A DNA stretch of 64,000 bases from an uncultured Fibrobacterota bacterium (GCA_963753345.1 CAVWBU010000027.1:32001-96000), one strand, 5' to 3'. Counted from the first letter of the stretch, positions 2,601 to 33,600 are shown. Notes: a model not told the origin generated them from the letters alone. Translations and numbers: made by a program.

Positions 2601-2760
2601 TTGACTGAAAAGATTTCCTCTGCCGCGCGTTAGGTGGACCGGAGGGTGAGCCAGGGCGAATTGCCGGCCGACCCGGCCGCAAGGCATTGGGCGGCCGGCA
2701 ACGAGGCGAATACCCGAGCCCGGAGGGAGACCGGCCGGAGCGTAGCGAGGGCAACGCCCA
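2601..2760 (-). repeat. Conserved structured element Y (candidate ncRNA/ssDNA motif, Flavo-1-like ends), copy 1 of 3
   Basis: Minus strand reads TGGGCGTT...CCACCTAACGCG with multiple hairpins, followed by TTCAGTCAA; homologous to 18019-18182 and 33441-33600. Confidence 0.85.
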
Positions 2761-2803
2761 GATTTTCGGACTATTTCAAGAAACTATTTCAAAGGACTTT
2801 GCC

Positions 2804-3551
2804 GTGCCGTCGTCATTCGTCCAAACCGTAACCTCCCAGACCATGAACCTGGACGTCACCAAGATGCTCGGCATCAAGCGCGACGTGACCGCGCTGTGCA
2901 CCGACCTGTTCCTCATCATCATTCGCATGCGTGAAGCGGAAGACCTGGGCGATCCGGCCGCGCTCCGCAAGCTCATCACCTATTACCTCTCCCTGTTCGA
3001 AAAGAACTGCAAGGCCATCGGCATGGACCCGGAGTCTGCGGCCGAGGCGAAATACGCCATTGTCGCGCTCGTGGACGAGACCGTGCTCAGCGTCCCGGGC
3101 GCGTGCAGAGACTACTGGATTTCGCGTCCCATGCAGCTCGACTACTTCGGCGACAACATTGCGGGACAGGAATTCTTCGAGAAGCTGCAGAAACTGCAGC
3201 TCACGGCCGAAAACAAGAAACACGTCCTCGAAGTGTATTTCCTGTGTCTGGCGCTCGGGTTCGAGGGCAAGTACAAGATGTTCAATCCCGCGGAGCGCAT
3301 CGCGATCATGGAAGACCTGGGCCGCAAAATCCGGAGAACCAGGATCAGGGTTTCCTCCGATTTGTCGCCGCACGGCAGGCGGCCGGAATCGTCCGCCGAG
3401 AAGAGGAGCAAGGCGTTTCTCTTCCCGCTGTGGCTTTCGGCTGCCGTCGCCGCCGCTGGCGGTGATTGTCTGCTGGGTCGTTTTGTTTTTTGTCAACAGC
3501 TCCGAGGCGAATGCCCTGCTTTCGTCCATCCAATCACTGGCGGCGCGGTAA
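2804..3551 (+). CDS. tssL: Type VI secretion membrane protein TssL (DotU family), frameshifted near 3455
   Basis: AKYAIVALVDETVL, W-x3-PMQLDYFGDNIAGQEFFEKL, LEVYFLCLALGFEGKY motifs; GTG start after AAAGGA; the TM helix continues in another frame (LAVIVCWVVLFFVNSS...) to a stop at 3551, just before tssM. Confidence 0.88.
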
Positions 3552-3557
3552 CAGACC

Positions 3558-6500
3558 ATGAAGAAACTTCCCGTCTGGATCATTGTCGTGTGGTGCGCGC
3601 TGGCGATATGCGGCGTGCTTGCGATGGTGATTGGCGCGCTTGTTAAGCTCCCCGCGCTCCTTCAATGGCTGCCCGGCGCACTGGTTCTCGCCGGTGATGC
3701 GATCTGGGTGACGCTGCGGCTCGCGCTCGGAAGGTCGAAGAAAAAACAGACAAATTTCTTTTCCGGAAGCCAGACGGTATTCGCACGGGTCGCCAGGGAA
3801 ACCAACGAGGCGGTCGACAGGTACCTCGGCGCTGTGGTGCGCAAGGGTCTGCTCGGCAAGAGCGCGCTGTACGAACGGCCGTGGTTCCTGTTGTGCGGCG
3901 GTGAGAAATCAGGGAAGACGTCGCTGCTGCGCGGTGCGGGGCTCAATTTCCGGCTCCGGTACCCTTCGGAAAAAGACGGCATGGTGCTCGACGGCCCGGG
4001 GCAGATCACGTGGCACTTTGCAAACGAGGCGGTGTGGATCGACACGCCGGGCGCTCTCATGTCCGACGAGGGAAAGGACACCTGGCAGGCGTTTGTCGCG
4101 TCGCTGTCGCATGTCCGTCCCGAACGGCCTGTGGACGGCGTGGCGCTCGTGGTGAGCGCGGCCGACGTCCTCAACGCCGACGACAGGATGATCAAGGAAA
4201 TGGCTTCCACGCTGCGGCGGAGAATCGACGAGCTCATCGCCGCGTGGACCATCGAATTTCCGGTGTATCTCGTTTTCAACCACGCCGACGGGATTCCCGG
4301 CTTCGCCGAATACTTCGGAGACCAGCTCACCCGGGCGCAGGAGCAGATCTTCGGCGCGACACTGTCGGCCGACCTTGACAAAATGCTTCCGCGGATCGCG
4401 TTTGCGCAGGAATTCTCCCTTCTTTGCAGGTCGCTCACCGATCTGCGCGTCGACAAGCTGTACAAGGAGAAGGACGAAGCCCGGCGCCGAATGATATGCC
4501 GGTTCGTCATCCACTTCGAAGGAATCCAGGAAAAACTCGGCGCCTTTGCCGCCGAGCTGTTCAAACCGAGCAGCTACGAAGGCAGGCCGCTTTTCCGGGG
4601 GTTCTATTTTACCAGTTGCATCGAGATTGCTTCGGGCGAATCGCGGGACGAGACCGCCCGCCAGCCCGATGTCGGCCAGACCATTGCAAGCCACCCGCTC
4701 AATCCGCGCAGGATGCTCTCGCCGGAAGCGTTGCAGCCGAAGGCCGCAGCCACGTCCGAAGTGAAATCGCTGTTCGTGCTGCCCCTGTTCCGCGAGCTCA
4801 TGGTGCGCGGAAAGGAACTCGTGACGGCCACGCAGAAGCGCACGCGCCGTCAATTTCTCCGGCACTACCTTATCACCGCGGGCATCGCGGCAGCTGCGTG
4901 CCTCATTGTCGGTCTCATGGTTTCGGGACTCTTCACCTCGCGCGAGCTGCTCGAATCGGTCCAGGCCGACCTTTCGGCCGCGCCGCCGTCCGCTGAAGGC
5001 GGCCCTCTTGGGCAGTTTGCCTCGCTTGACGCCGAGGGAAAGGCGGTGGCGCGGCTCCAGGGATACGAGGACCGGGGCGCGCCCGTGCTTGCGTGGGCGT
5101 TCGGGTTCTACCGCGGCCGCGAGGCGCTGGACCGGCTCAGGGTCGCGTATTTCGCAAAAATCAACAGTCTGATTGTCTCCCCGGCCGTCAAGTATCTCGA
5201 ATACCAGCTGTGGGACAAGGTGCAGGGATACGGCGAGCTTGCCGGGCCGGATTACGACAACCTGTACAGCGCGCTCAAGGCATACCTTTCCATATCGGAA
5301 ACCATGACCGGCCGCCCGAAGGACATCGACACCGTGTTTCTGCGCCCGGTGTTGCTCGACGCGATACAAAAGTCGCTCATGAGCGTCCAGAACGGCGCTG
5401 CGCGGCTGCCCGAACAGGTCGAAAAGATCCTCAGCGAAAACATGGGCGTGTACCTGCTGTTCCTCAAACGCCAGGCCATCCCGCCCATCCAGGAAAACCA
5501 GCGTCTGGTGACGCTCGCGCGCACGAAGCTGCGCCGCCTGCCGAGCGCGCAAGCGCTGTACGAGTCGGTGATCAACCGGGTGAGCCAGGACGCGCCGTCC
5601 ATTTCGCTCGACCAGATCCTGGCCCGCAAAGAGGAGGGCATCCTCAAGGCCGGCCGCGCCATCAGCGTCCTTTACACGCAGGAAGGCTGGGACAAGTTCG
5701 TGGCCGACGCCGTGGCCAGGGCCGCGGCCGACCCCTTCAAACTCGACTGGGTGATAGGCCTTTCTGCCGACCAGGTCCCCGGCGAGACGCTTGACAAGAA
5801 GAAACTATACGCAGACATGGTCGCCGCGTATCTCGCCGATTTCACCTCCCAGTGGCTCGGGTTCATCGCTTCCGTCAAGATCGATCCGTTCGGCGACCTG
5901 GGCAGGACCCAGCGCATTCTGCTCAAGCTCACCGCGGAGAAATCGGAGCTGGCCGTGCTGCTGGCCACGGTGGCCGACTACACCGTGCTCAAGAAGGAGA
6001 GCGTGGCCGACAAGGCCGGCGGCGCCGTTCTTGATGCAGCGTCAAAAGTCCCGGGCGGGCAGGCCCTGGCCGCAACTGCGGCCAAGGCGCAGAACGAGGC
6101 GAACAAGGCCGAAGGCGCGCTTGCGTTCTCCCTGGGGCAGAAGTCGCCGTTCGATGACCTTAACGCCACGTTCGATCCGCTGCGGTCGTTCGCGCGTTCC
6201 ACCGGAGGCGCGCTGAGCGGATACGAAGGCTACCGCGACAAGATACAGACGCTCGCGTCGAAAATCGCGGCGCTTGAAACGCAGGGCGAGGACAACGCGC
6301 CCGCCGTGTTCACCGGCAGGGACGACGATCCGCTCCTTTGCTGCTGGAAGTTCTCGCAGGCCGCGCTCGCCAATATGCCCGACAACCTCGCTTCGTCGCT
6401 CAAGGGCGTTCTCATGCAGCCGGTGGACAATGCCGCGGCGGCGGCCGCGTCCGTGCTCACGCGCGCGCTCACGGCGCGCTGGCATTCCGAAATTGTAAAG

Positions 6501-7187
6501 CCGTTCACGGCCAAGTTCTCCGGGAAATACCCGTTTTCGCCGAGGGGCGAGGACGCCGCGTTCGCCGACGTCATGGATTTCTTCCGTCCGCAGACCGGTA
6601 CATTCTGGGGGTTCTACGATCGCGTTCTCACGCCGTATCTCGTTAAAACGGCCTCGGGGTGGATGGTGAAACCCGTCGGGAGCCTCGCGCTCAATTTCAA
6701 CCCGCAGCTCGCTTCGTCGCTGGTGAGCGCGGAGCGCGTGCGCGACATTTTCTTCAAGCCGGACGGCACGGTGAGGCCTTTGTCAATCACCATGACGCCG
6801 TCCGCGTCCAACAAGAACAGCGCGAAACTCGAGGTGAACGGCCAGACGTTCGACCTCGCGCCCGGCGGACGGCCGGTCACGGTGACCTGGCCCAACGACG
6901 CAACGCCCCCCGGCGCCGCGCTCAAGATAAGCGTGAGCTCCGACTTCACCCAGGACATCTCCTTTGGCGGCCAATGGGGGTTTCTCAGACTCATGCAGGT
7001 CGCGCATGTCAACAAACTCAACGCCTCGACGCTCAACGCCCGCTGGCAGTCGAACGTTCAGAACATGTATATGGTGGTTATGGAATACCGGGTGCAGGTG
7101 TCGGGGACCGACCACCCGTTCGGCGACCCGGTCTTTTCGGAGTTCAATTGCCCGACGGAATTGTTTGTTGGAGAGGGGAAAAAGTAG
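3558..7187 (+). CDS. tssM: Type VI secretion membrane subunit TssM (IcmF)
   Basis: N-terminal TMs, LYERPWFLLCG-GEKSGKTS Walker A, AVWIDTPG, FRGFYFTS, C-terminal GQWGFLRL; 1209 aa. Confidence 0.95.
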   Translation: MKKLPVWIIVVWCALAICGVLAMVIGALVKLPALLQWLPGALVLAGDAIWVTLRLALGRSKKKQTNFFSGSQTVFARVARETNEAVDRYLGAVVRKGLLGKSALYERPWFLLCGGEKSGKTSLLRGAGLNFRLRYPSEKDGMVLDGPGQITWHFANEAVWIDTPGALMSDEGKDTWQAFVASLSHVRPERPVDGVALVVSAADVLNADDRMIKEMASTLRRRIDELIAAWTIEFPVYLVFNHADGIPGFAEYFGDQLTRAQEQIFGATLSADLDKMLPRIAFAQEFSLLCRSLTDLRVDKLYKEKDEARRRMICRFVIHFEGIQEKLGAFAAELFKPSSYEGRPLFRGFYFTSCIEIASGESRDETARQPDVGQTIASHPLNPRRMLSPEALQPKAAATSEVKSLFVLPLFRELMVRGKELVTATQKRTRRQFLRHYLITAGIAAAACLIVGLMVSGLFTSRELLESVQADLSAAPPSAEGGPLGQFASLDAEGKAVARLQGYEDRGAPVLAWAFGFYRGREALDRLRVAYFAKINSLIVSPAVKYLEYQLWDKVQGYGELAGPDYDNLYSALKAYLSISETMTGRPKDIDTVFLRPVLLDAIQKSLMSVQNGAARLPEQVEKILSENMGVYLLFLKRQAIPPIQENQRLVTLARTKLRRLPSAQALYESVINRVSQDAPSISLDQILARKEEGILKAGRAISVLYTQEGWDKFVADAVARAAADPFKLDWVIGLSADQVPGETLDKKKLYADMVAAYLADFTSQWLGFIASVKIDPFGDLGRTQRILLKLTAEKSELAVLLATVADYTVLKKESVADKAGGAVLDAASKVPGGQALAATAAKAQNEANKAEGALAFSLGQKSPFDDLNATFDPLRSFARSTGGALSGYEGYRDKIQTLASKIAALETQGEDNAPAVFTGRDDDPLLCCWKFSQAALANMPDNLASSLKGVLMQPVDNAAAAAASVLTRALTARWHSEIVKPFTAKFSGKYPFSPRGEDAAFADVMDFFRPQTGTFWGFYDRVLTPYLVKTASGWMVKPVGSLALNFNPQLASSLVSAERVRDIFFKPDGTVRPLSITMTPSASNKNSAKLEVNGQTFDLAPGGRPVTVTWPNDATPPGAALKISVSSDFTQDISFGGQWGFLRLMQVAHVNKLNASTLNARWQSNVQNMYMVVMEYRVQVSGTDHPFGDPVFSEFNCPTELFVGEGKK

Positions 7188-7369
7188 ACGGGTTTTTCTC
7201 CCGATTTTCTTTACGAAATCGGCGAAACTCTTGCGCGCTCCTCGTCGGCGGCTTGACAGTATCCCGCTTGCGGCCCCGCAACGATGATGGTGGAAATTCA
7301 TACGCCGCGATCCCGGTAGCCCGCCCAAACGCCAGATCCTCTCCAAGGAAATATTCTTGAAGCAAAGTC

Positions 7370-8059
7370 TTGACAAAGGCCCGTCAATATGGTTTATTAT
7401 GCTTGTATGACCCTTGGGGCGCACGGAAAGCCCTTGACATATCAGGGACGGATGCGGCTGGAAACGTGGTGATCGGCACCACAGGGTTTGTACTTGACAC
7501 GAGCGGATATGGTGCGACTGGGACAAACACGCTGGTGTACAGGCACAAGCCGGGGACACAGTATCCAGTGACGTGTTTGGTGGCGCCACAGACAAATCTG
7601 GAATGGAGGGATTATACGTTTACGGATACAATAATCAAGCCCTCCGGTTCGGTTTATGACAGTGTGGATTTATACGTGCCCTTCTACTACACGGACAGTA
7701 GCCATTCATATGAATTGGGGTTCACGCAGAACGGCGTCGTTCTGAACGGGGGCGGGTTTAAGGATTCGCTGTTGCTGCCAGGCGCAAAGATCAGTGGCGG
7801 CGACACGTTATCCTTTGCGATAACGGCGACAACCAATCCGGTTGGAGATGTGCCGGATAAAGATGTGCTGATAGTCCTAAATTGCAACAAAAATGGAGCG
7901 AGCATTCTTAATAATGCTCAGTATTCTGATGATTCGCCAAGCAGAGTGCTAAGTGGCTATCCCTGTTTCAAAGTTGATTTTAGCAACATCGTCAATTTGA
8001 ACAATCGTAGCATGTTGCCGTTAAGATTCAAAGTTGCCAAAGTGCAAAAGGTAAATTAG
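7370..8059 (+). CDS. Hypothetical beta-rich protein, start uncertain (possibly a gene remnant)
   Basis: 229-aa ORF, AT-richer than neighbours, Thr/Gly/Ser-rich, no clear RBS or signal peptide. Confidence 0.5.
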   Translation: MTKARQYGLLCLYDPWGARKALDISGTDAAGNVVIGTTGFVLDTSGYGATGTNTLVYRHKPGTQYPVTCLVAPQTNLEWRDYTFTDTIIKPSGSVYDSVDLYVPFYYTDSSHSYELGFTQNGVVLNGGGFKDSLLLPGAKISGGDTLSFAITATTNPVGDVPDKDVLIVLNCNKNGASILNNAQYSDDSPSRVLSGYPCFKVDFSNIVNLNNRSMLPLRFKVAKVQKVN

Positions 8060-8084
8060 CATGCATATCTGTTCGGGGGTGCAA

Positions 8085-9093
8085 ATGAAGAGGATACTCA
8101 CATTATTTCTTCTATTTCTCAACCTTAGAGCTTATCCGTAAATAATGATTTGGGCTGCAACCGGCTGCAAAAACCGCCTGCTTTGTCAGGCTGCATCGGC
8201 GTATCGCCATGTGATACGCCTGCTTCGCCTTTCGCGCATGCGGCTTTTTCGCTCGGTTTCGCCATCAAACCTTATTCACGGATAAGCTCTTAGTGTCTAT
8301 GGTTCTCAAGAAGGAGGATTAATTTTCTCTGGAATTGATACTATAAACACGAGGAATCAAGTTGGATTTGATTTTGTTATCCAGAAAAGTTGTACCGTAG
8401 GCATTATTAGCGCACCTTATACTTGTGTAAACCACTTTCTCTTCACATTCAACGCAAATAAATATGATTTGGCTCCGGACGCGCAAGAGGGGCCTGCATA
8501 TTGTATAACCGTGGGGAAAACTAATCTTGATTCGATCAAAACCGCCCCGTCAGACAGTCTTTTTTCAAGTCAACCGATTGCGCACGGAGACAACATTCCC
8601 GTATACTCCCTCTCCTCCCGCATCGGCAACGTCTACCTCCTCAAGACCTCCACCGACCCGCGGCCGGCTATGGGGCACACGCGTTTTATGCCAAAGATCA
8701 GGATTCTCAAATTCATAGTCGTTGATAGCGCAAGTCATAGCATTAAAATGGTGTTTCTGTGGGCATCCAATGAGCGGTACCGGAGATCTTACCACCTCCG
8801 GCCTCGACACCTTCCATCTCGACACGGTTCCCACGGCTATCCGGGAGAACAGTCTCGCGGTATCACGCCATTCCCGGTTTGCAGGCAGCGGGCAGGTTTT
8901 CAAAGTTGTTGGGGATGTGTTTACCGTTCCCAAAGAGCTTGTCGGCCCAGGCGCATCCGTTACCGTGTTCGATTTGAGCGGGAGAAGGCTGGGAACCGTG
9001 AGGATTGGACAGGAGAGGAGCGTTGATTTGAGAGGATACGGGATACGCAACGGGGTGAGGGTGGTGAGGGTGGAGAATTTTGTTCTGAAATAA
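8085..9093 (+). pseudogene. Secreted protein with T9SS-like C-terminal domain, interrupted by a MITE and a frameshift (~8770)
   Basis: Removing 8128-8292 restores an open frame MKRILTLFLLFLNLSVYGSQEGG... that joins the 8469 ORF; C-terminus VTVFDLSGRRLGTV lies in the 8722 frame. Confidence 0.8.
8128..8289. mobile_element. 162-bp MITE with 18-bp terminal inverted repeats and TTA target duplication (IS5/PIF-Harbinger-like)
   Basis: Left GAGCTTATCCGTAAATAA, right TTATTCACGGATAAGCTC (1 mismatch); TTA at 8125-8127 and 8290-8292; internal hairpin GGCGTATC...GATACGCC. Confidence 0.88.
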
Positions 9094-9489
9094 CCTCACC
9101 CCCGGCCTGCTTCGACTTCGCTCAGCACAGGCTCTCTCCGCCCGGAGAGGGGAGAATGGAAGCCGTGAAACATACTGTGACAAGCGGTGTGGTTGCACTG
9201 CAATACGTGGATGATTACAAGAAACGACAGTGCCGCGCTTTTTTGAATCCCACAGCGAGCGCATTCCTCGAAGCTTGCTTCGGGGCAAGCGAGCGACTAT
9301 AAGTATGTTCTTTTTCCATAGGGATGGAAGATTCCTCGCAGCTTGCTGCGGGGTTCTTCAAAGGCGCGGTCTAAGCGAAATCCGGTTCTCCAACGATGAA
9401 ATCACAAATAACATGCCGAAGGTACTTCAAAAAATGGGTGCCCGAAAATTCCCCTCTCCGGGCGGAGAGGGGATACAGGGGTGAGGTTA
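9091..9489. repeat. Inverted pair of REP-like palindromes enclosing IS200/IS605-end-like hairpins
   Basis: TAACCTCACCCC...CTCTCCGCCCGGAGAGGGGA (9091-9153) is inverted at 9450-9489; two ATTCCTCG(A/C)AGCTTGCT(T/G)CGGGG hairpins at 9263-9285 and 9331-9353. Confidence 0.75.
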
Positions 9490-9634
9490 CAAGGGATGTA
9501 CAAGGCGGATGGAATTTTGATCATTTGGTAAAAGCGCGCACAAGGACGCTTCTCGGGTCTGTAAATGTGCTTGAAGGATATCGACCGTTAGGTAAAATTA
9601 ATGGCGAAAAGGGTTTGATTCGTGAAAGAGGAAA

Positions 9635-10330
9635 TTGATGTTTAAACATCAAACGTTGTCTCTCTTACTGGTTGAGGTGGTGCTTTTATTTATTAGCTGC
9701 GGCCTGCAAAATAGTACAACAACTACCGTCAGTGTTGATCCTGCGGCCCTTATTTATCCACGGCAGATCAAAAGAGGATCGTCAATTGTATTGGAAGTGG
9801 GTTACATGTACGATCCCAACTTGGCTTTTCGCGGTAGTGTAAGTAGAAAGGACAATGTTTACAATGTAGTACTTAAAGGGATAGAGACAGATATCAATTC
9901 TAACCCGTTCCCAAGTGGATTGTATACGTGCCCATTAGACTTGGGAGTCTTTGATTCGCAGACCACTTATAGAGTGATAATAAATAATGCTGTGGGCGGC
10001 ATGTTCGACGTCCAGTGTACAACAGGCGTGTATGACTCAATGGCCTTTCCAATCAGCTATGAATATTACGTCAAGACATCTAACGCCCTTTTTAACGCCG
10101 ATACTCTGAATGGGTTTGAAGCATGGATTGCCGACAGTACGCAAGATTCGTTGTATACCGTTATCCCATTGCTTCGGACTGGAAATGGATATTGGAAATC
10201 TGGTTTTAAAAGCTACGTTGATTCGATGTTTATTCACCTAATTCCATTAGGTGTATTGACTTCAACATCTCAAATTTCCCTCTTTCGACTGACAATAGAG
10301 GATAGGGTTAGAATATGTGTCTTAAAATAA
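9635..10330 (+). CDS. Hypothetical lipoprotein (AT-rich)
   Basis: Hydrophobic leader ending LLFISC (lipobox-like), GAGG RBS, 231 aa. Confidence 0.7.
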   Translation: MMFKHQTLSLLLVEVVLLFISCGLQNSTTTTVSVDPAALIYPRQIKRGSSIVLEVGYMYDPNLAFRGSVSRKDNVYNVVLKGIETDINSNPFPSGLYTCPLDLGVFDSQTTYRVIINNAVGGMFDVQCTTGVYDSMAFPISYEYYVKTSNALFNADTLNGFEAWIADSTQDSLYTVIPLLRTGNGYWKSGFKSYVDSMFIHLIPLGVLTSTSQISLFRLTIEDRVRICVLK

Positions 10331-10382
10331 AGACAATGGCAAAATAAAATTCACCTAGGACGTGGAAGGCGGATGGCGGAAT

Positions 10383-10841
10383 TTACAGCACCTGCCCCTT
10401 TGTCTTCGAATACTCCTTGATGATCCTCACAAACCGGTATATCGAGCTGATCGTTCTGGCCGAAATTCGGTGCCAATTATGGTTCGTAATAAAAGTTCCC
10501 CCGCCTGCCGTCTTGCGGATGTGGCCGGCCAGGTCCATAAGGACCTCGATCTGGTCCGGGTTGAGAGGGATCACGACGCGCCCGGGGTCGCGCTGCACGG
10601 TCCCGCCGTATATTTCCACGAGATCAACAATTCCCTGGCTCAGCGGAATTGAACCCAGCAGTTCAAAAACGAATTTCCCGCGTGCGCCCACGGTGACGAA
10701 CATGGAGCAGAACTGCGTGAGATCGTCGTTATCATCCATGTCGTCAATCTGGATCGCGGAATCCTTCCTGAGTGTTCCTGTAAGAAACTCCTTTTCACCG
10801 AGATAGGCCTCTGCCAGGTACTGTCTGAGCCGTGCCGACAT
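10383..10841 (-). CDS. Hypothetical protein
   Basis: 152-aa ORF (MSARLRQYLAEAY...) with AGGAAG RBS and typical codon usage. Confidence 0.65.
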   Translation of the reverse strand: MSARLRQYLAEAYLGEKEFLTGTLRKDSAIQIDDMDDNDDLTQFCSMFVTVGARGKFVFELLGSIPLSQGIVDLVEIYGGTVQRDPGRVVIPLNPDQIEVLMDLAGHIRKTAGGGTFITNHNWHRISARTISSIYRFVRIIKEYSKTKGQVL

Positions 10842-11030
10842 AGCAGTCTTCCTATGCACCTGTTGCCGCCGGGCCGGTGCGCCTGCCGCACATGGATTGA
10901 TTTAAAAAAGATACTTGGTTCGCCGGACGCCTGCCAACTATTCATGGGTTGCGTTCAGGAACAGCGGGAAAGTCTGCGGAATCCTGCGGCAGGCGTGGTG
11001 AGGCGATTTGCTTTCCAATCAGTTTTTTTC

Positions 11031-11059
11031 TTGACCGCGGCCTGTCGTACAAATAATAT
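11031..11059 (+). promoter_or_regulatory. Putative sigma70 promoter of cspA
   Basis: TTGACC-17 nt-TAATAT about 70 bp upstream of the ATG. Confidence 0.45.
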
Positions 11060-11129
11060 TTAGAGGCATGGATATCAGTATGATATCCTGTTTTATTTTA
11101 CAATTAAATTTTAAGAAAGGTTGTTGTTT

Positions 11130-11336
11130 ATGGCGACAGGAGTTGTAAAGTGGTTCAACAGGTCCAAAGGCTACGGCTTCATCAAACCCGATGACGGCTC
11201 GAAAGACGTGTTTGTTCATTTCTCCGCCATTATCGGCGAAGGCGTGAAGGATCTCAAGGAAGGCGAAAAGGTTGAGTTCGAAATCGTTGTGAATCAGAAG
11301 GGACCGAATGCGAAAGATGTGAAGGTGGTCGCATAG
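11130..11336 (+). CDS. cspA: Cold shock protein (CspA family)
   Basis: [13 protein letters not shown]1 KGYGFI, RNP2 VFVHFSAI. Confidence 0.95.
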
Positions 11337-11380
11337 TCCCGCAGATTCGCGTTTTTGACGGATAAGCAGACTATCGCCGG

Positions 11381-11411
11381 ATGCCGTACTTTTCAGTACG
11401 GCATTTTTTTT
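11381..11411 (+). terminator. Rho-independent terminator
   Basis: ATGCCGTACT-TTTC-AGTACGGCAT followed by a T run. Confidence 0.8.
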
Positions 11412-11513
11412 GCTTTCCGGCGAAACCGCGCTTACCTTGCGGTCGAGCATTTTATATTTTTGTAAAGAACAGGCCGCCTCTTTTTTCACCCGGCAGGTCC
11501 GCTCGACACGCAC

Positions 11514-13985
11514 ATGGCAAACCGCATGCCGCCATTTCTCATCACTTCGCCTGACGGCCGCGCACGAGTGCGCGCGGCCGGGCAACGAACCCTGTTTGTT
11601 CTGTGGGTCCTGTTCGCCATTTTGTGCCGGGATGCCTGGGGCGCAACGAAAGGTGCCTTTCTTCAGGAACAATTTGCAGACCTCGATTCTCTGTTGTTGC
11701 GGACTGCGGCGCTCCCCAAGTCAAGTTTGAAGGAGAACGAACCCGTCAACGCGTTTTTCCATAGGCTTCTCGGGCGGTACCCCGAAATCGTGCAGATTTT
11801 GCGCACCAATGCAAAAGGAACCATCGTGAACGATGCGGAGCCGCTTGGCAGGCCGGAGGAACTGCGCGTCAATGCGTCGGACAGCGCCTGGCATGCCAAT
11901 CCGTGCAGAAACCTCGGGCCATGGCACAGTCCTCTCATGAAGGATAACCGGCGGCCCTACCTTGTCTGGAGCAGGCCGTTGACGGTGCGCACGGCAATCG
12001 GCAGGCAACAGTTCCACGGCGTGGTGGCATTCAAGATCGACGTGTTCGCGTGTTTCAAGAATTTCGCGGCGCATGTCGACGGCCCTTTCGAGATCCTGCT
12101 TGACGGCAGGAGTTTTTACTACCTTTCGTGGTCGGACACCATTCCTTTCAACGAAACGAGCGTGGTGATTCCCGGCGCCATTGTGCTCGCCCTTCGCCTG
12201 CCGAAAGCCGTGGGGGAGGTCCGGACGCCGCCGGCCGCCGGGCCGCAGGCGGCCGAACGCGCCGCACCGGTTCCGCGCCCGACCGAGGCCGAATCGTTGA
12301 CAAAAGAGGAAGACGGCGGCGCGGCTTTGCAGGGCGAAGTTCCCGTGCAGCGGAGCAGGGTGTCCGGCGACCTGTGGCTGTGGGTTGCAGCCGTTGCCCT
12401 GATTCTGGCGGGGGTGTTCGGCGCGGTGTTTATTGCCGGCCGCGCGCGAAGGCGCGCCGCACGGGACAGAACCGGCCCGGATGTCGGCGCGCCGGACTGG
12501 GCAAAGGAGTCGGCCGACATTGCCGCCCATGCCGGTTCAACGGATGCGGCCGAAGAGGTGACGGAAATCGGCGCCGGGGCGGCGTCCGCTCCGGCTGCTG
12601 CGCCGGAGGAGCTTTCCGATTTGCAAACAAGCGGCGCGCCGCCGCCTGGTAATGCTGCGCCGGATGCGGCCTCCGAGGCCCAACAGGCGGATGCGGAGCC
12701 GGTGCTTGGTCCCGACGACCGGCAGCGCATCAGAAACGAGGAACGCAAGCGGGTCGAAGAACAATACGCGCAGGAGATCCGCGCCGGGCTGCGCGAAGCC
12801 CTTACGGCCGAGATCAGGGCCGGGCTGGCCGCCGAAGTCCGGGCGGAGGTGGAGGCCAATGAGCGGGACGCAATTTACAAGAAGGAACGTGAGGCGCTCA
12901 CGTCGACGGTGCGGCGGGAACTCGCCGAACAGGACCGGCCGACGGTCGTCGAAATGCAGAGAAAACGTCTCTTCGCCGAAATAAGCGAAAGCGTCACGAA
13001 GTCGCTTTCCGCAGAATACGAGGAAAAGGCGCGCGCCGCGCTCCAGGCGGAGGTGGCGAAAAAGGTCGCGGACAAGGAGGCGGACCGCATCCGCAACGAG
13101 GAAACCGAACGGCTCAGGGAAACGCTGCGCGCAAGGATCATCGAAGAGGAAGCGCCGAAACTTGCCCGCACCATGCGCGAGAGCCTGGCTCGGGAAATCC
13201 GCGAAAAACTGGAAACGGGCGAGGGGGACGTGATCCGGAAGGGAATCCTGGCCGAAATAAGGGCCGGCGTCCGGGATGAACTTCTCGCCACCGAGCGCGT
13301 GAGGATCCGCGCCGAACAGCTTGAAAAGCTTGAGCGCGAACTGAGCGGTGAAATCGTTGCCGCGGAGAAGGAGAAAATCAGATCCGCGCTCCTTGACAAA
13401 GTGGCGCGCGAGGAGCGCGAGCGCGTTGAATCCGAAGACCGGCCGGCTATTCTCGAGGCGGAACGCAGCCGCCTGCTGGCCGAGGAATCGCCAGCATTGC
13501 GCGAAGAACTCCGCCGGAAGATACGGAGCCAGGAGATGGAGGCCATTCGAGAATCGGTGAAGTCGGAGATCTATCTGGAAACGGTGCAGGCGATACGCAA
13601 CGGACTGGAAGAGAAATACGCGTCTGCCGTAAAGGACCAGCTCGCGGGCATGAAGCAGGGACTTGGCAAGAAAGCGCGTACCGATTTAAAAAGCGGTCTT
13701 GAGCACGACTACGTCGGACTTACCGAAGGCGTCGAGCATCTCCTTGGGTTTCTTGCCGACAGCGAAGCTCTCAAGTCGCTTGGACAGACCGTTACGCTTC
13801 TGTCCGAAGAGAAGAAGAAGTACAAGTACTTCAACCTTAATGCCGTCCAGACCGAAAGCCTTCTTGATTACCTGAAGCGCGTTCATGCGCGTTTCAGCAT
13901 ATATCTCGATGACGTTGACCAGCGGGTGCGGGGCCTTATGCTCAAACTTGGCAGTCTCAAGAACAAACTTGACAGCGAGGAGTGA
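11514..13985 (+). CDS. Hypothetical membrane protein with extracytoplasmic N-domain and long E/R-rich coiled coil
   Basis: Hydrophobic leader, TM at LWLWVAAVALILAGVFGAVFIAG, Ala/Pro linker, about 400 aa of charged helical sequence. Confidence 0.75.
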   Translation: MANRMPPFLITSPDGRARVRAAGQRTLFVLWVLFAILCRDAWGATKGAFLQEQFADLDSLLLRTAALPKSSLKENEPVNAFFHRLLGRYPEIVQILRTNAKGTIVNDAEPLGRPEELRVNASDSAWHANPCRNLGPWHSPLMKDNRRPYLVWSRPLTVRTAIGRQQFHGVVAFKIDVFACFKNFAAHVDGPFEILLDGRSFYYLSWSDTIPFNETSVVIPGAIVLALRLPKAVGEVRTPPAAGPQAAERAAPVPRPTEAESLTKEEDGGAALQGEVPVQRSRVSGDLWLWVAAVALILAGVFGAVFIAGRARRRAARDRTGPDVGAPDWAKESADIAAHAGSTDAAEEVTEIGAGAASAPAAAPEELSDLQTSGAPPPGNAAPDAASEAQQADAEPVLGPDDRQRIRNEERKRVEEQYAQEIRAGLREALTAEIRAGLAAEVRAEVEANERDAIYKKEREALTSTVRRELAEQDRPTVVEMQRKRLFAEISESVTKSLSAEYEEKARAALQAEVAKKVADKEADRIRNEETERLRETLRARIIEEEAPKLARTMRESLAREIREKLETGEGDVIRKGILAEIRAGVRDELLATERVRIRAEQLEKLERELSGEIVAAEKEKIRSALLDKVAREERERVESEDRPAILEAERSRLLAEESPALREELRRKIRSQEMEAIRESVKSEIYLETVQAIRNGLEEKYASAVKDQLAGMKQGLGKKARTDLKSGLEHDYVGLTEGVEHLLGFLADSEALKSLGQTVTLLSEEKKKYKYFNLNAVQTESLLDYLKRVHARFSIYLDDVDQRVRGLMLKLGSLKNKLDSEE

Positions 13986-13988
13986 CCA

Positions 13989-16936: not shown

Positions 16937-17117
16937 GGAATCGCTTCCGTTCGAAGTTGAAGATCGCGGTTTTAAAAATACGTCACCAGTATTACGTTTT
17001 GGAATGTAATAGTGGTGGGGGTGAAAAACAAAAGTGCCCGGGGATTGGATTGCGCCACTGCTCTCCAGGGTATATTTTTTGATCACCAGGCTGTCAATCT
17101 TACCGGTTACGGACATA

Positions 17118-17993: not shown

Positions 17994-18018
17994 GACTATT
18001 GATAAATAGAAAAAGAAT

Positions 18019-18182
18019 TGGGCGTTCCCCTCGCTCCGCTCGGGTCGGTCTCCCTGCGGGCTCGGCCATCCGGCCTCGTTGCCGGTCCGCCCCGATGGCC
18101 TGCGGCCGGGGTCGGCCGGCAATTCGCTATAGCTCACCCTCCGGTCCACCTAACGCGTGGCAACCGAATTCCATTCAGTCAA
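18019..18182 (+). repeat. Conserved structured element Y, copy 2 of 3
   Basis: TGGGCGTTCCCC...CCACCTAACGCG then TTCAGTCAA at the same spacing as in the other copies. Confidence 0.85.
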
Positions 18183-18301
18183 TTATTTCTTTTTGGGCCA
18201 TTTTAAGTGTCCCATGCCGACATGAAGTATTTTTGCAATTTCTAGCACTTATAACGACTTCTCGTCGCACAGTTACTTGACAAAAGAAGAAGGAACTTCG
18301 A

Positions 18302-19195: not shown

Positions 19196-19206
19196 AAAGA
19201 AGTCAC

Positions 19207-26062: not shown

Positions 26063-26121
26063 CCGGCTTCACCGCGGGAACCAAAGGTTGTCGGGTCGCC
26101 GCGTCTGCCGGCGCGAAAGAA

Positions 26122-27211: not shown

Positions 27212-27258
27212 AACTACGTTCGCCTCAAAAAAATTATTGCATTCTTTTTACAGGATTG

Positions 27259-27720: not shown

Positions 27721-27728
27721 CGCCGCGG

Positions 27729-30700
27729 TCAGCGTTTTTTTGCCTCTTCCTTTATCTCGGCATTGTTCGGGTCAAGCTGCATTGCCTTGTCGAGATTCTG
27801 CTGGTAAAGCGCTGTGTTCTTCTGCTGCTTTGCCAGCCGGGCCAGGCCCAGATATGCCAGCGCGTAGTTCGCGTCCGCGCGGAGCGCCCGCTCGAAGAAC
27901 GTCTTTGCCCACTGGGGCTTGTTCTGCTGCATGTGAACTTCCGCGCGCTCGCACAGCGCCGGGGCATAGTTCGGATTGATATAGGAAATCTCCTTGTACG
28001 TTTCGACCGCGGAATCGAGCTTCTTCTGGCCCCGCTGGGCGCGCGCCAGGATCATGAGGGCTTCTATGTTTTCCGGGTCAGTCGCCTTGATGTCTTCCAC
28101 GGCGTCCTGGGCCTCCTTGAACCTTCCATCGTCGTACAGGCTTTGCGCATAAGACATAAGTGTTTTGTTGTCCCGCTTTATTGCAATGAGGTCTTTCATT
28201 TCCTCTATTGCCTTCTTATTCTGGTCGGTCTTCTTGTACAAATCGACAAGTTGGAGCCGGATGTCGGTGTCCTGCGGTTTCAGGGTTTTTGCCTTGACAA
28301 GAACGTCGACCGCGTCCTTGGGACGGTTGGTCTTGATGTAGCCGATGCCCAGAAGCGTGAGAACGTCCGGGTCTTTGGGCGACAGCGTGTTCGCCATTTC
28401 AAGGTACACCATGGCATCGCTGACCGACCCGCCCTTCATGAGCAGCACCCCGAGCCTCTTGTTCGCGTCGAGGTTCTGCGGGTCGAGCGTAATGAGCTTC
28501 TTGTATGCGTCAAGCTCTCCGCGGTCGTTGCCGAGCTTGTTGTACACCTGCGCCATCTCGATCCACATTGCAGGAATGGTGTCGGCGATCGTGGACGCCT
28601 TCTTGAGCAGCGACGCCGATTTGGCAAGCATGTTCTTGTCTTTTGCGTAGAGGATTCCCAGGCGGAGCATGTTCCGGTAATCGTTCGGGAACATCGCCAC
28701 GTTGTCCTCGTAGATCTTCCTGGCGCGCATCGGGTTCACCTTCTCCTGAAGGAAGCCAGCCTTGTACGCGACGTCGGGGTCCTTGGCGCCGGGCAGCATC
28801 GAGTACGCGGCATACATGTCGACCGCGCTCTGAAGATTGTTGTCCTTTTCGTATGACTCTGCGAGCAGCTTGATGACCTTCTTGATGCCGGGAACGGTCG
28901 GCTTGCGGAGCCGCAGCCCTTCGTAGATTTCCTGCGCTTTCTTGCTGTTGCCGGTAAGGTAATAGCTTTCGCCCGCGGCCATGAGATAGTCGATGTCGTC
29001 GGCGCCCTTTTCCTTGACAAGATCGAAGTACTTCACGGCGTCCTGCGGCTGTTTCTTCTGGTACAGTGCCATGCCCACGCCTTTTGCGACGTCCTGGTCG
29101 GTGGGGACTTTCTCAAGGTACTTCTTATACACCGTTATCGCCTGGTCGTTCCTGCCTTCCTTGAGATACAGGTCGCCAAGCTCCTTGTACTCAGCTTCGA
29201 CCTTGGGGTTCATCATGATCACCTGTTCGAAGGTGACGATTGCGCCGTTGCGGTCGCCGGTCTTTGCCTGGCACTCCGCGAGAGAGGAGAGAACGTCCAC
29301 GTTCTGGGGGTCCATCTGCATGGCCTTCTGGTACATCTCGAGCGCCTTGGCGAACTGCCCGCTCTTCTGGTAGATCATGCCGAGCGTAGTGTAGGTGTTA
29401 ACGTCGGCCTCGCCGGACCTGATGGCGCCGGAAAGAACCCGGATCACCTCTTCCTGCTGGCCCTTTGCGATAACAAGTTCGGCATACCGTTTGTAGAATC
29501 CCTTGATGGACGGATCGAGCTTGATTGCCGCTCGGTATGCGGCAAGCGCGCCGTCGCGGTCTTTCAAATCGTACAAGAGGTCTCCCAGGTTGCGCTGGGC
29601 CGCCGCGTCGGAAGGATTGATCGCCAGGTATCTCTTGAGGTACACGCTCGCGCCGCCCTTGTCTCCGCTTTTGAGGCACAGGTCGTACAGGTTCTTGAGT
29701 ACGTTGACATTCTGCGGGGCGAGCGCCGAAAGCTCTTTGTACAGATCAAAGGCCTGCTTGAGATCCTGCTGGTCAAGCGCGTATTTCGCGAGCCTGAGGC
29801 GCGACTCGACATTGGTCCTGTCCATGTCGATGATCTTTTTGTCGGCGGCCGAGAGCTTCGCCTGATCGCCGAGCTGGTCGTAGCAGACGGCAAGCTCCTT
29901 CCAGTATTCCAGTTCCTGGGGCTTCTTGTCGACAAGGTACTCGAGCTGATCTTTTGCAGACGCGTAGTGCTTGCCCTGGAAATATGCTTTGCTGAGAATA
30001 ATCCTGGATTCCATGAGCGAGGGATCGATCTTTACCGCCGATTCGGCCGCGTCGCGGGCCTTGTCCCACTGGCCGATCGAGGAAGCGGCGATGGCGATTC
30101 CCTCAGCCGATTTTGCGCTGTGGTCGATGAGGAAACATTTTTCGAAGTAGCCGACCGCCTCGGCGTACTTTTTTTCCTTCAGGTTGTACGTTCCGAGCGT
30201 CATGTAGACTTTGGGATCGTTCGGATTGAGCGAAATCATTTTTTCGTAGGTTGATTTTGCCTTTTCCTTCATGCCGTTCTTCTCATACAAGTCGGCGAGA
30301 CGGGCGGTGGCCTCGATGTTGTTCGGATTCTGCGAAAGCGCCTTTTCGAGACTCTGAATGGCTTTGGCGCCGTTACCCGATCCTTGGTACGCATCAGCAA
30401 GGAGAAAGTTGATGTTTTCAACGATCTTTCCCTGCGGATCGGCATTGGCAATGAACTGGAATTGCACCAGGGCAGCCTCCCAGTTTTTCTTTTCAAGATT
30501 GGCGCTGCCCACCTTGAAACGGGAGGTGATTGCTTCAGGGGAAGTCGATGCGCCGAATTTTTCAACCGCCATCTGATACGCCTTAAGGGCGTTTTCGGCA
30601 TTCTGGTTTTTTTCGTTGGACACGGCGCGGGCATACTGGTCCATTGCGGTCATTTCCGGACGGCCGCCTATCCTTTCGTACTCTCCGGCCGCCGCAAGGA

Positions 30701-31421: not shown

Positions 31422-31581
31422 ACCGTACGCTCCTTTCAGCGAAGCCAATGGGGAAGTGCGGGCGATTTCATGTTCTGTTCCAGAAGGAATTTAACAGCAG
31501 ATAAATATATATGAACGAAAATGTCCGTGGGTATAGCAAATCAGCCGTTTCAGGCTCATGCCCGCACGATCCAGCGACGCT

Positions 31582-32220: not shown

Positions 32221-32235
32221 AGGTCTCGCCTTTGG

Positions 32236-32709: not shown

Positions 32710-32844
32710 AATTTCCTTTTTGTAAAAGATGCCGGGTGCGGGCATCGGGAACCCCGAAAATATACTATTTTCTGTTGTTCGCAGTTCTGTTGCAGCCCGG
32801 CCCGCCGCGGGCCGCAAAATCCATCTAGTTCCGGAAGGAGCCCC

Positions 32845-33192
32845 ATGGCACTTACCAATGAGGAAAAGGCCCTTGTCGAAGAGGCAATGCAGGTGTATCT
32901 CCAGATCGTGGCGCGTCAGCTGCCGCCGGCGCAGGTCCAGCAGGTTGCGCAGGTCGCGCGCGGCATACTTGACAAGCTCGATTCGGTGGCAAGCGGCGGG
33001 AGCGGCGCCAGAGGCAACAGGCCCGACGGCATCACCGACGAGTGGTTCAAGAAGGTGTGTCAGAAATGCGCCAAGCTTTCACCCACGGGCTGCACCGACA
33101 AGGTGACGGCGAAGTTTCCGGGCAAGTGCGACCCGATATTGCGATATGAGAATGAGAAGAAGGGGATTAAGGCGAGGGACAAAGAATTCTAA
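32845..33192 (+). CDS. Hypothetical protein with Cys cluster
   Basis: AAGGAG RBS, 115 aa, CQKC-x6-C-x10-C. Confidence 0.75.
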   Translation: MALTNEEKALVEEAMQVYLQIVARQLPPAQVQQVAQVARGILDKLDSVASGGSGARGNRPDGITDEWFKKVCQKCAKLSPTGCTDKVTAKFPGKCDPILRYENEKKGIKARDKEF

Positions 33193-33217
33193 GTCTCTAA
33201 AAGAAAGATGGTCTGGT

Positions 33218-33297
33218 GGGGGAAGTTTCCGCCTCGCTGCGGCCTCCTCGACCTCCGGCCTGCGGTGTCCTCCGCTACCCCCTCCTGGGTGCACCCC
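33218..33297 (+). repeat. Conserved structured intergenic element X, copy 2 of 2
   Basis: Homologous to 2353-2454. Confidence 0.75.
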
Positions 33298-33440
33298 AAG
33301 TGGAAGCAGTTGCAGAACCAGACACCTGTGTGTGGGCACCCGAGAAGAGTAGTTGAAAAGTTGAATTGTTGAAGAGTCTTAAATTCAAACAGGACGCACT
33401 GACTAATTCGTTGCGGATGCCGATTGGCGTGGAAATAACA

Positions 33441-33600
33441 TTGACTGAATGGATTTTTGTTGCCGCGCGTTAGGTGGACCGGAGGGTGCGCAAGAGCGCA
33501 TTGCCGGCCGACCCGGCCGCAAGGCGTAGGGCGGACGGCAACGAGGCCAACGGCCGAGCCCGAAGGGAGACCGGCCCGAGCGCGGCGAGGGAAACGCCCA
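33441..33600 (-). repeat. Conserved structured element Y, copy 3 of 3
   Basis: Homologous to 2601-2760 and 18019-18182. Confidence 0.85.

Follow-up and report, generated by a model that had tools for sequence, protein, structure and literature searches.

Module A is a strand-specific folded element of which three copies lie in the window, the whole stretch of 64,000 nt analysed here, and which is dispersed in large numbers through the 4.5 Mb genome of the host, an uncultured peat/sediment bacterium of the Fibrobacterota (Chitinivibrionales). Searches with nhmmer gave 406 matches to the family in this genome (E<=1e-3), 346 of which cover the folded core. A folded, strand-specific and dispersed element with compensatory changes in its stems had been proposed in a preliminary description of this DNA, and covariation across the family supports that proposal. 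On balance, module A is best read as a non-autonomous interspersed repeat that acts as a folded single strand, of the REP/BIME/PATE kind. It would probably belong with REP/BIME elements, REPINs and the hairpin-ended miniatures of IS200/IS605 in one broad class, in which it stands out by a roughly fivefold greater size and a far more elaborate build. It is not a member of a known RNA family.

Module A copies in the window

A direct check of the sequence found the three copies where they had originally been placed. Their folded cores start with TGGGCG (at 2760 on the minus strand, 18019 on the plus strand and 33600 on the minus strand) and end with ...CCACCTAACGCG (at 2626, 18157 and 33466, respectively). 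When aligned with their flanks, the copies have a mean column identity of 78%, and the covariance model matches them at 2572-2772 (-), 18007-18212 (+) and 33413-33612 (-) with 198-216 bits (E 1e-58 to 3e-64). The resemblance between the three is far above chance. The length of about 140 nt first given for the unit was too short; it measures about 205 nt, reaching from about 8 nt 5' of TGGGCG to about 55 nt 3' of AACGCG, with a folded core of 135-150 nt across the family. Two of the three copies form the 5' part of composites of 412-433 nt, located at 2335-2767 and 33200-33611, in which a second folded module, module C, follows. The features of the window are as follows.

2353..2505, minus strand: module C copy 1, GC-rich second folded module, CTCGGTGCCCCC ... 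GGGGGTAGCGGAGGAC ... GAGGGGGATACCTCCCCC; 73-160 BLAST partners
2510..2535, minus strand: TCAAC/CCAAC short tandem tract of composite 1, between modules A and C, seen in the sequence
2572..2772, minus strand: module A copy 1; folded core 2760-2626; TTCAGTCAA 2609-2601; GCGCCAA 2589-2583; covariance model R1 198.2 bits, E 1e-58
18007..18212, plus strand: module A copy 2, solo, without module C; core 18019-18157; TTCAGTCAA 18174-18182; GGGCCA 18195-18200; covariance model 216.3 bits
33213..33345, minus strand: module C copy 3, seen in the sequence; BLAST coverage of the composite 33200-33611, up to 270 partners
33352..33372, minus strand: TCAAC octamer tract of composite 3, seen in the sequence
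33413..33612, minus strand: module A copy 3; core 33600-33466; TTCAGTCAA 33449-33441; CGCCAA 33429-33424; covariance model 205.1 bits

Copy 1 has 80-256 BLAST partners within the genome, and BLAST coverage of copy 2 extends over 17997-18204. According to the ORF list, copy 2 begins 26 nt past a stop codon at 17991-17993 and copy 3 directly past the stop of a 505-aa ORF (33621-35138, minus strand). Most of the finer details originally reported for these copies were confirmed. TTGCCG...CGGCAA is present in all three, the stem CCGCCC/GGGTCGG becomes CCGCCCC/GGGGTCGG in the 18-kb copy, and TTCAGTCAA begins exactly 16 nt 3' of AACGCG in each, with (G)CGCCA or GGGCCA found 12-13 nt further on. The loop of the middle hairpin had been described as UNCG in every copy; TCC, TGC and TTC do stand between CCC and GGG, but across the element's hairpins the loops read as UNCG are mostly C-YNC-G triloops.

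Fold, covariation and strand

Module A folds into a closing helix, a 4-bp inner helix and five hairpins. In an alignment that was fitted to the model and consists of mutually related sequences, both partners vary in 33 of the 43 pairs, amounting to 346 cells where 89 are expected (107 distinct copies from several genomes), and pair cells are paired in 90.2% of cases versus 81.3% in shuffles. The covariation score of 0.220 in this alignment compares with 0.085 in shuffles, is equalled by none of 500 shuffles, and is at most 0.046 with the partners slid. Covarying variants of the closing helix are GCGTT/AACGC, GCGCC/GGCGC, GGGTT/AACCC and GCCTT/AAGGC, and entire hairpins are swapped for different hairpins between copies. 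The inner helix contains a U-G pair in 68 of 100 copies, and the joining strands of the multi-helix junction are unpaired yet conserved.

Loops of UNCG type, always on the same strand, had been taken as a mark of the element. The one-strand asymmetry holds across the family, whereas most of the hairpins are fully paired stems over a Y-N-C triloop. A C-YNC-G triloop corresponds to C-GNA-G on the opposite strand, with GC-GNA-GC in hairpin 1. On the originally described strand, C-TNC-G occurs 652 times in 240 copies as against 102 occurrences of C-GNA-G, and TCGC..GCTC occurs 110 times while its complement is absent. That choice of strand may have been wrong, because stability predictions favour the opposite strand, in 186 of 207 copies when DNA parameters are used and in 163 of 207 when the parameters are those of RNA. 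On the originally described strand there are 125 G-U versus 43 A-C combinations, with 70 of the 125 G-U contributed by one pair.

Flanking words and composite architecture

The flanking motif at fixed distance, a putative protein-binding site in the preliminary description, is real, but it lies outside the conserved core of the family. The TTCAGTCAA/GCGCCA flank is common to the lineage of genomes G000 and G001 only, and is absent in the copies of G002, G004, G005 and G022. Among the 340 copies with a recognisable closing motif, GTCAA stands exactly 21 nt past the closing pentamer in 158 and at 22 nt in 20, and 139 have no exact GTCAA within 45 nt of the pentamer.

Slightly more than half of the core-covering copies (179/346) are followed by a TCAAC octamer tract and then by module C, in this fixed order and orientation. 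The module C family has 277 nhmmer matches, 179 with a same-orientation module A upstream; a module A in the opposite orientation or downstream was found for none of the 277. YCAAC words reach a median of 4 in the composites compared with a background of 0.42 per 200 nt, and TCAAC is positioned exactly 10 nt 5' of GG(G)TGCC in 106 of the 173 module C copies that follow module A. Copies of module A also occur as tail-to-tail pairs, 19 of them within 250 nt (38/346 copies), 13 of which join the AACGC and GGCGC subfamilies. Head-to-head or tandem pairs within 250 nt were not found.

Genomic location and ends of the element

Modules A and C together comprise 120,619 nt, which is 2.7% of the genome and, using a crude ORF map, about one fifth of its intergenic DNA; on that map they are found in 307 of 2464 intergenic gaps. 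A single one of 327 module A copies is inside a long ORF. Orientation is random relative to the neighbouring genes, as the four classes of arrangement hold 71, 88, 85 and 69 copies and the upstream gene is co-oriented in 156 copies and divergent in 157. Where it is co-oriented, the median onset of module A is 8.5 nt past the upstream stop codon. The G-rich strand of the copy is the locally G-rich strand in 129 of 218 copies (Fisher p 0.005), a replication bias of only about 59:41 that assumes the strand with G>C to be the leading strand. No sigma-70 promoter or intrinsic terminator was called at the three window sites.

The left end, AA(A/G)ANTT-GGGCG, is unrelated to the right end, so the ends are not inverted repeats, and no target-site duplication was definable at the orthologous and strain-variant spacers compared. 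Both features are marks of a classical MITE, which module A is not. Nearest-neighbour identity among the copies has a median of 89%. No recently copied pair was found in the genome, as 17 copies with a partner of >=98% trace to duplicated strain contigs, and the activity of module A therefore appears old or slow. Contigs from public sequencing runs terminate at module A/C repeats, which may help explain the fragmented assemblies of these peat/sediment bacteria.

Distribution and turnover between genomes

The spread of module A is lineage-restricted and patchy. The family is carried by 15 of 81 genomes of the order, 16 of 151 genomes of the phylum sample, and four of the five other genomes of the genus; none was found in the fifth, G003, a 99%-complete genome of a sister species. 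The seven-helix fold is kept across at least four families of the order and also beyond the order, and exact 20-mer matches (31 stretches) were to records titled Fibrobacterota, Fibrobacteres or Chitinivibrionales only.

Empty sites had been suggested as a check at orthologous loci, and occupancy of the orthologous spacers does differ between genomes. At site 1, G003 has a 43-nt spacer and G002 has module C alone; at site 3, G002 and G004 have spacers of 118-131 nt without A or C. In G005, each of the two sites has an A-family copy, in reverse orientation. A clean pair of filled and empty alleles with a defined junction was not found among the orthologous and strain-variant spacers, which differ by replacement; in strain-variant contigs the entire spacer is replaced. 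G000 and G001 share orthologous copies that have been retained from the time the two species split, and cassette-like swaps of segments are seen between orthologous copies.

Such persistence and segment swapping are points in favour of a structural job kept by the host, for which the read-through RNA or the DNA would shield the 3' ends of mRNAs, insulate neighbouring genes or serve as a binding site for nucleoid or topology proteins, with spread and likeness arising mainly via recombination. Structural roles of this sort have been proposed for REP/BIME elements. Copies that differ by 10-25%, and for which no near-identical partner exists at another locus, still preserve the fold, which suggests selection at each site, and the closeness to the stop codon of a co-oriented upstream gene is also in line with a host role. 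We nevertheless consider such a role rather unlikely as the main explanation. Orientation is random to both neighbours and the loops are strand-asymmetric, and therefore a role at the RNA level is possible for only about half of the copies. Furthermore, terminator calls were negative at the three window sites, and the sister species represented by G003 is without module A.

It is more doubtful again that each module A copy or A-tract-C composite is an independently transcribed gene for a structured non-coding RNA, with C(UNCG)G-type loops on the originally described strand. The complex multi-helix junction, its conserved unpaired joining strands, the covariation and the inner-helix U-G pair would all fit such a gene, the T-N-C(G) loops with their free middle base are compatible with UNCG tetraloops, and the fixed A-to-C polarity suits one transcript. 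However, a UNCG reading of hairpin 1 leaves its loop without a closing pair (GC-TNC-GC) and most loops of this type close over three bases, while even RNA parameters predict greater stability for the opposite strand in most copies. Calls for promoter- and terminator-like sites were negative at the three window copies, no Rfam family matched, and we know of no precedent in bacteria for at least 346 gene copies of one RNA.

Comparison with known repeats and candidate enzymes

The reading as a non-autonomous folded repeat draws on several likenesses to the REP/BIME/REPIN elements of Enterobacteria and Pseudomonas, which go with RAYT transposases. Module A shares with these the hundreds of intergenic copies, the compensatory upkeep of structure, the lack of terminal inverted repeats, and the regular mosaics formed with other motifs (A-tract-C). 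Its inverted doublets are mostly of two different subtypes, a likeness to BIMEs, which contain inverted doublets of Y and Z REPs. In contrast to the single palindrome of 20-40 nt of REPs, module A has about seven helices in its 135-150 nt and a unit of about 205 nt, its loops are strongly strand-asymmetric, and it bears no sequence similarity to REP. Being far more structured than the usual REP-type repeats, it makes a good test case for the upkeep of structure in (semi-)selfish DNA, and it is a candidate new entry for catalogues of RNA/DNA structures. BOX elements of Streptococcus pneumoniae are modular boxA-boxB(n)-boxC repeats, intergenic and present in about 100 or more copies. Modules A and C resemble them in having short middle units, variable in number, flanked by two unlike folded end modules, in intergenic position and in a copy number of about 100 or more, yet sequence and phylum are unrelated, the A and C end modules are much larger, and A is often solo or in inverted doublets.

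RAYT-like genes are encoded in the genome, three plus one fragment. The C35 protein, the one scanned, matches NCBIfam REP_Tyr_transpos at E 2.6e-13, below the curated cut-off, and stays under both of the curated cut-offs applied to it (14.7 bits versus 23, and 50.1 versus 80). Of the 81 genomes of the order, 55 have relatives of these proteins; G003, which has no module A, is among the 55, and G022 and the 73%-complete G001, both with module A, are not. In difference to REP/RAYT systems, no RAYT gene is flanked by module A save for one one-sided case: one of the three RAYT-like loci in G000, the present genome, has a copy, on one side, and none of 12 RAYT-like loci has one within 1.5 kb (no covariance model match better than E 0.0027, 14 bits). 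Pfam Y1_Tnp (PF01797) had no match in the genome at E<=0.001.

With IS200/IS605 elements such as IS608, and with PATEs, the miniature non-autonomous derivatives of these elements, modules A and C share strand-specific folded ends without inverted terminal repeats and a modest orientation bias to the replication strands. The portion of PMC3201880 consulted places TTAC 19 nt 5' of the left hairpin of IS608 and TCAA 10 nt 3' of its right hairpin, so that the words outside the folds are at 19 and 10 nt compared with 21 and 10 nt for A and C, the right-end word of IS608 being TCAA as well. Unlike in IS200/IS605, searches of the genome gave neither a canonical Y1 transposase nor TnpB, and exact junctions of excision or insertion were not seen for A and C. 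The recognition structures would be multi-helix junctions in place of single imperfect hairpins, and the A-then-C order is that of a right-end/left-end junction, not of an element running from left end to right end.

If module A does act as a folded single strand, folding would take place in one of the two DNA strands, more likely the G-rich one, while it is single-stranded, for example at the replication fork, and a trans-acting enzyme would read the fold and cut or join at short words lying outside it at a set distance. The words would be, on the G-rich strand, TTGAC, 21 nt 5' to the fold of A, and GTTGA, about 10 nt 3' to that of C, and the geometry of words and folds would be that of the IS608 ends. 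The diverged RAYT-like Y1 transposases of the genome are candidate enzymes, and after insertion, segments might be exchanged between copies by gene conversion. Tentatively, A and C could be miniature 'peel-and-paste' single-strand transposons, recognised by the whole multi-helix junction and moved by diverged RAYT-like enzymes. Each would insert 3' of TTGA on the G-rich strand, so that A would land behind the GTTGA end of C, and the octamer tract would be a landing pad or scar. Were this speculative reading true, HUH transposases would read DNA folds far more complex than any known.

Strand-specific folds in hundreds of copies also bring to mind the Ssn model, in which the folds would be recognition sites of a single-strand DNA nuclease specific for sequence and structure, or of a similar 'self-marking' system. 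Ssn nucleases have hairpin repeats in hundreds of copies that modulate transformation. As far as the part of PMC11893778 consulted describes them, Ssn/NTS pairs are widespread, and the recognition motifs are single 20-50-nt hairpins flanking the ssn gene. This genome does have a small GIY-YIG gene that lies within hairpin repeats, but it sits among a different, 111-nt tandem repeat, and the 8 kb that hold it (C27:256000-264000) contain no module A match. Given also the size of the multi-helix fold of module A, 135-150 nt against a single short hairpin, we regard the Ssn model as quite improbable here. Module A shares with Flavo-1 that it is a structured non-coding element of unknown function in the wider FCB group. 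Flavo-1 occurs in Flavobacteria/Bacteroidota, and that module A is Flavo-1 or another catalogued RNA family, a suggestion whose sole support was a perceived likeness of the ends, can be dismissed with near certainty, as none of 4227 Rfam families matched at gathering score in the whole window, the organism belongs to a different phylum, the Fibrobacterota, and is not a Flavobacterium, and all genomes found with the exact 20-mer are Fibrobacterota/Chitinivibrionales MAGs. A permissive Rfam scan (E up to 10) of 17950-18260 gave only two matches, both at chance level, to CRISPR-DR58 (13.5 bits) and SCARNA6 (11.1 bits).

In both copies examined, an IS110-family element occupies an identical position within module A (CCT^AACGC). 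Module A is a natural target for recombinases of the IS110 (bridge-RNA) type. Module A resembles REP elements in this respect too, since IS110 elements are reported, in the part of PMC11208160 consulted, to insert into REP elements.

The repeat family and its unit

The three structured copies in the window belong to a repeat family, here called module A, which is real, strongly structured, abundant and matches no Rfam family. All three copies are present as previously described, each reading TGGGCGTT...CCACCTAACGCG, and they score 198-216 bits against a covariance model built later. The details noted in the preliminary description also hold: the loop of the middle hairpin varies (CCC-TCC-GGG, CCC-TGC-GGG and CCC-TTC-GGG), the CCGCCC/GGGTCGG stem gained one C and one G jointly in the 18-kb copy, TTGCCG/CGGCAA is invariant across the three, and TTCAGTCAA starts 16 nt past AACGCG in every copy, with GCCA further on. 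Conservation begins approximately 8 nt 5' of TGGGCG (consensus AA(A/G)ANTT-GGGCG), with an A-rich run 5' of this start that is gone by position -18, and stops approximately 55 nt past AACGCG, at ...TTGCGCCAATCGG.ATCC. These limits therefore give a unit length of some 205 nt. The elements in the window, delimited by BLAST coverage, are as follows.

2335-2767, minus strand: composite, site 1
17997-18204, plus strand: solo module A copy, site 2
33200-33611, minus strand: composite, site 3

The window corresponds to C27:32001-96000 of the source genome (4.52 Mb in 55 contigs, 55.9% G+C, 94% complete), in which an HMM of the three window copies gave 406 matches at E<=1e-3, some of which are duplicates owing to near-identical strain contigs in the assembly; 346 of the 406 cover the folded core. 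The near-duplicate contigs (89-99.6% identity; C10/C39/C43, C3/C17/C37, C15/C55, C16/C4/C5, C2/C26 and others) are probably co-assembled strains. They inflate repeat counts slightly and offer natural allele comparisons. A partner at 98% identity or above was found for 17 of 239 copies, all on such contigs, and nearest-neighbour identity among copies has a median of 89%, so no recent burst has taken place.

Composites and doublets

Composites are ordered as module A, then a tract of TCAACNNT-like octamers, then a second GC-rich folded module (module C), and the stretch between A and C holds no recurrent ORF. Module C has 277 matches in the source genome, 179 of them with A upstream in the same orientation (median gap 56 nt); A is opposite or downstream in none of the 277, and for the other 98 no A occurs within 400 nt. 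The spacing from the last TCAAC to the GG(G)TGCC downstream of it is exactly 10 nt in 106 of the 173 C modules with a preceding A and in 34 of 93 without one. GTCAA occurs 21 nt past the closing pentamer of module A in 158 of 340 copies. The pentamer TCAAC/GTCAA recurs at three positions: 21 nt past the A fold, in the octamer-tract unit and 10 nt upstream of the C fold. Octamer tracts with the TCAAC unit are found at window 2510-2535 and 33352-33372.

Module A also forms doublets. Nineteen tail-to-tail pairs lie within 250 nt of each other, with no head-to-head or tandem pairs in that range, and 13 of the 19 join the two main subfamilies, which are distinguished by closing motif (AACGC, 237 copies; GGCGC, 85 copies).

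Fold and covariation

RNAalifold on MAFFT alignments was dropped because unequal-length hairpins were misaligned, giving poor and partly spurious structures. It was replaced by a hand-drawn structure of 43 pairs, from which the covariance model (R1) was made. The parts of the fold, read off an alignment of 26 sequences, are listed here.

Closing helix: GCGTT/AACGC
Hairpin 1, three forms: CCC-TC-GC-TNC-GC-TC-GGG, CCCCGC...GCGGGG or CCCGGCC...GGCCGGG
Inner helix, short: YCGG/CCGG
Hairpin 2: CCC-TNC-GGG
Hairpin 3: GGC(C)-loop-(G)GCC
Hairpin 4, long: base TTGCCGG/CCGGCAA or TTGCCGCCTG/CAGGCGGCAA, tip variable
Hairpin 5: swapped for an unrelated hairpin in some copies

Covariation was measured on 112 matches (107 distinct) from the source genome, three named MAGs, three genomes of the same genus (G002, G004 and G005) and one of another family (G022). 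Paired cells made up 90.2% against 81.3% in shuffles, and both-sided changes fell in 33 of the 43 pairs (346 cells against 89), counts that come from an alignment fitted to R1 and from mutually related copies. The structure-preserving substitutions proposed from the window alone were borne out across genomes, with a covariation score of 0.220 compared to 0.085 when shuffled and none of 500 shuffles as high; sliding the partners by 1-3 columns lowered the score to 0.046 or less. Hairpin 2 had double changes in none of its three pairs, and only 67.5% of cells were paired in the hairpin 4 tip. A short version in G022 keeps a covarying closing helix (GGGTT/AACCC, GCCTT/AAGGC) and retains hairpin 1, the block GGGCTCGGCTATTCGCCTCGG and ACCCTCC..CTAAC, with hairpin 4 shrunk.

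Strand asymmetry and loop identity

Across 240 copies, the strand reading TGGGCG...AACGCG carries C-TNC-G 652 times against 102 for C-GNA-G, and the tandem-mismatch context TCGC...GCTC 110 times against 0 for its complement. Because a double-stranded palindrome would lack such loop asymmetry, one particular strand matters. The loops had been taken for UNCG tetraloops, a reading that needs amending: in hairpin 1 (GC-TNC-GC) and most hairpin 4 tips the G is paired to the C before it, leaving three-base loops. On the opposite, G-rich strand the same loops take the forms C-GNA-G and GC-GNA-GC, and tandem G-A, flanked as pyrimidine-GA-purine, replaces the U-C/C-U mismatches. Loops of the C-GNA-G type and tandem G-A are unusually stable motifs, the loops especially so in DNA. 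Folding predictions for 207 cores favour the G-rich strand, which comes out as the more stable one in 163 under RNA parameters and in 186 under DNA parameters. Favouring the other strand are G-U cells, which outnumber A-C cells by 125 to 43; a single inner-helix pair supplies 70 of the 125, and without it the numbers are 55 and 42. We lean towards the G-rich strand as the one that would fold.

Distribution and turnover

The range of the element is phylum-wide but patchy. An exact 20-mer was found in Fibrobacterota/Chitinivibrionales MAGs only and was absent from viral contigs. DNA searches identified the element in four of the five other genomes of the genus, the exception being G003 (99% complete), where R1 also gave no match. 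Among 150 scored candidates, R1 matched 135-146 in G002, G004 and G005, and 55 in G022. Of 81 genomes in the order 15 carry the element, spread over 8 of 33 genera; in a sample of the phylum it is present in 16 of 151 genomes, two of them outside the order.

Orthologous spacers in other genomes of the genus

Site 1, G001: composite, oriented as in the source genome
Site 1, G002: module C alone
Site 1, G003: 43-nt spacer
Site 1, G004: 419-nt spacer without an A match
Site 1, G005: weak A-family copy (36 bits), opposite orientation
Site 3, G001: composite, oriented as in the source genome
Site 3, G002: 131-nt spacer without A or C
Site 3, G004: 118-nt spacer without A or C
Site 3, G005: A-family copy (72 bits), opposite orientation

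Site 2 had no informative orthologous spacer, and G005 has an extra gene there. Occupancy differs between genomes at sites 1 and 3. Strain-variant contigs had the entire spacer replaced at three polymorphic sites, with no clean fill or emptying, and orthologs in the source genome and G001 likewise differ by segment replacement, as seen in one of two such pairs, and not by clean insertion. In one example a stretch of approximately 100 nt in module C is nearly identical, but module A and one C hairpin belong to other subtypes. Such replacements point to frequent exchange of segments among copies.

Genomic context

Spacers are mostly taken up by their elements. Relative to the ORFs on either side, copies number 71, 88, 85 and 69 in the four classes of orientation, so orientation is independent of transcription. 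Matches start a median of 8.5 nt past the stop codon of an upstream gene that has the same orientation. Neither sigma-70-type promoters nor intrinsic terminators were called at the three window sites. The G-rich element strand lies on the locally G-rich strand in 129 of 218 copies (GC skew; odds ratio 0.42, p 0.005), and genes show the expected association with local skew, opposite to that of the elements. None of the runs containing the element among 14 public runs listed was an RNA run. Contigs from four DNA runs, compared with window 1-20000, gave no joint spanning any element; they stop at the repeats, and the joints listed derive from other copies.

Candidate partner enzymes

The Pfam models Y1_Tnp and TnpB had no match in the source genome. 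It does carry three diverged RAYT-like (Y1/HUH) genes, at C27:259567-260427, C35:162291-162770 and C32:21867-22664, plus one fragment. The C35 protein scored 14.7 bits against Y1_Tnp (cut-off 23) and 50.1 bits against NCBIfam REP_Tyr_transpos (cut-off 80). Of 81 genomes in the order, 55 have RAYT-like relatives, G003 among them but not G022 or G001, and their co-occurrence with the element is not clean. Module A was near none of 12 RAYT-like loci examined and near one of the three in the source genome. Homologues of the C35 protein at 85 bits or above occur in ten other genomes, six with A-like elements, compared to eight of the remaining 70; this co-occurrence is only a lead, since the threshold was chosen with the data in view and the genomes are related. 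Given the sub-cut-off scores, imperfect co-occurrence and few A-adjacent loci, a link between RAYT-like enzymes and the element is no more than a lead. In two of the three genes a long insert of low complexity separates the HUH region from the tyrosine region, and next to the C27 gene is a small GIY-YIG gene surrounded by tandem hairpin repeats of 111 nt.

IS110 insertions

The single IS110-family element of the source genome (C16:259731-261147) encodes a 356-aa DEDD recombinase (Pfam PF01548, DEDD_Tnp_IS110, 51.5 bits). An 83% identical copy is located in G005 (C27:86488-87910); these are the only two close copies in the order, and an exact 20-mer from the IS110 end had no match in the genome contig collection. 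Both interrupt an A-family element at the same point, after CCT and before AACGC, with CT repeated at both junctions. In the source genome, only about 24 nt of the A element remain to the left of the insertion, and to the right the contig breaks off 2 nt beyond the junction. Insertion of IS110 elements into REP elements around a short core has been reported (PMC11208160).

Comparison with known elements

Module A is best classed with those interspersed repeats of bacteria that work as folded single strands, as a large, elaborate and new form of them. It resembles REP/BIME/REPIN sequences in being intergenic and numerous, in keeping its structure through compensatory change, in combining as mosaics and in forming doublets of two subtypes; like REPs, it is also a target of IS110-type elements (PMC11208160). 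Unlike REPs, it is not a short single palindrome, nor is a RAYT gene found flanked by the repeat. The fixed-distance words of modules A and C recall those of IS608, where a TTAC sits 5' of the left hairpin at a distance of 19 nt and a TCAA 3' of the right hairpin at 10 nt (PMC3201880). The defining features of classical MITEs are lacking, as are those of Ssn motifs (PMC11893778). The suggested likeness to the Flavo-1 RNA did not survive: its defining features are absent, and no Rfam family matched at gathering or permissive thresholds. Integron attC sites have conserved ends in the order RYYYAAC...GTTRRRY. Judged by reading, module A has its ends (GCGTT...AACGC) in the reverse order and its copies are dispersed, and attC was rejected. 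Among the papers listed by a full-text literature search, none described repeats in Chitinivibrionales/Fibrobacterota, going by listing entries and the opening lines of abstracts.

Other repeats

A repeat of 930-940 nt was considered in the search for a partner enzyme and rejected, being an IS with terminal inverted repeats unrelated to modules A and C. It is found at C18:84589-85529 and in three more copies (the four 98-100% identical, transposase frameshifted) and is read from its sequence as IS5-like. Window 9239-9370 holds a different GC-rich hairpin repeat (...CCTCGAAGCTTGCTTCGGGG...CCTCGCAGCTTGCTGCGGGG...) with approximately 50-60 BLAST partners in the source genome, and a 533-nt stretch at window 29110-29642, with at most 9 such partners, may be a gene family.
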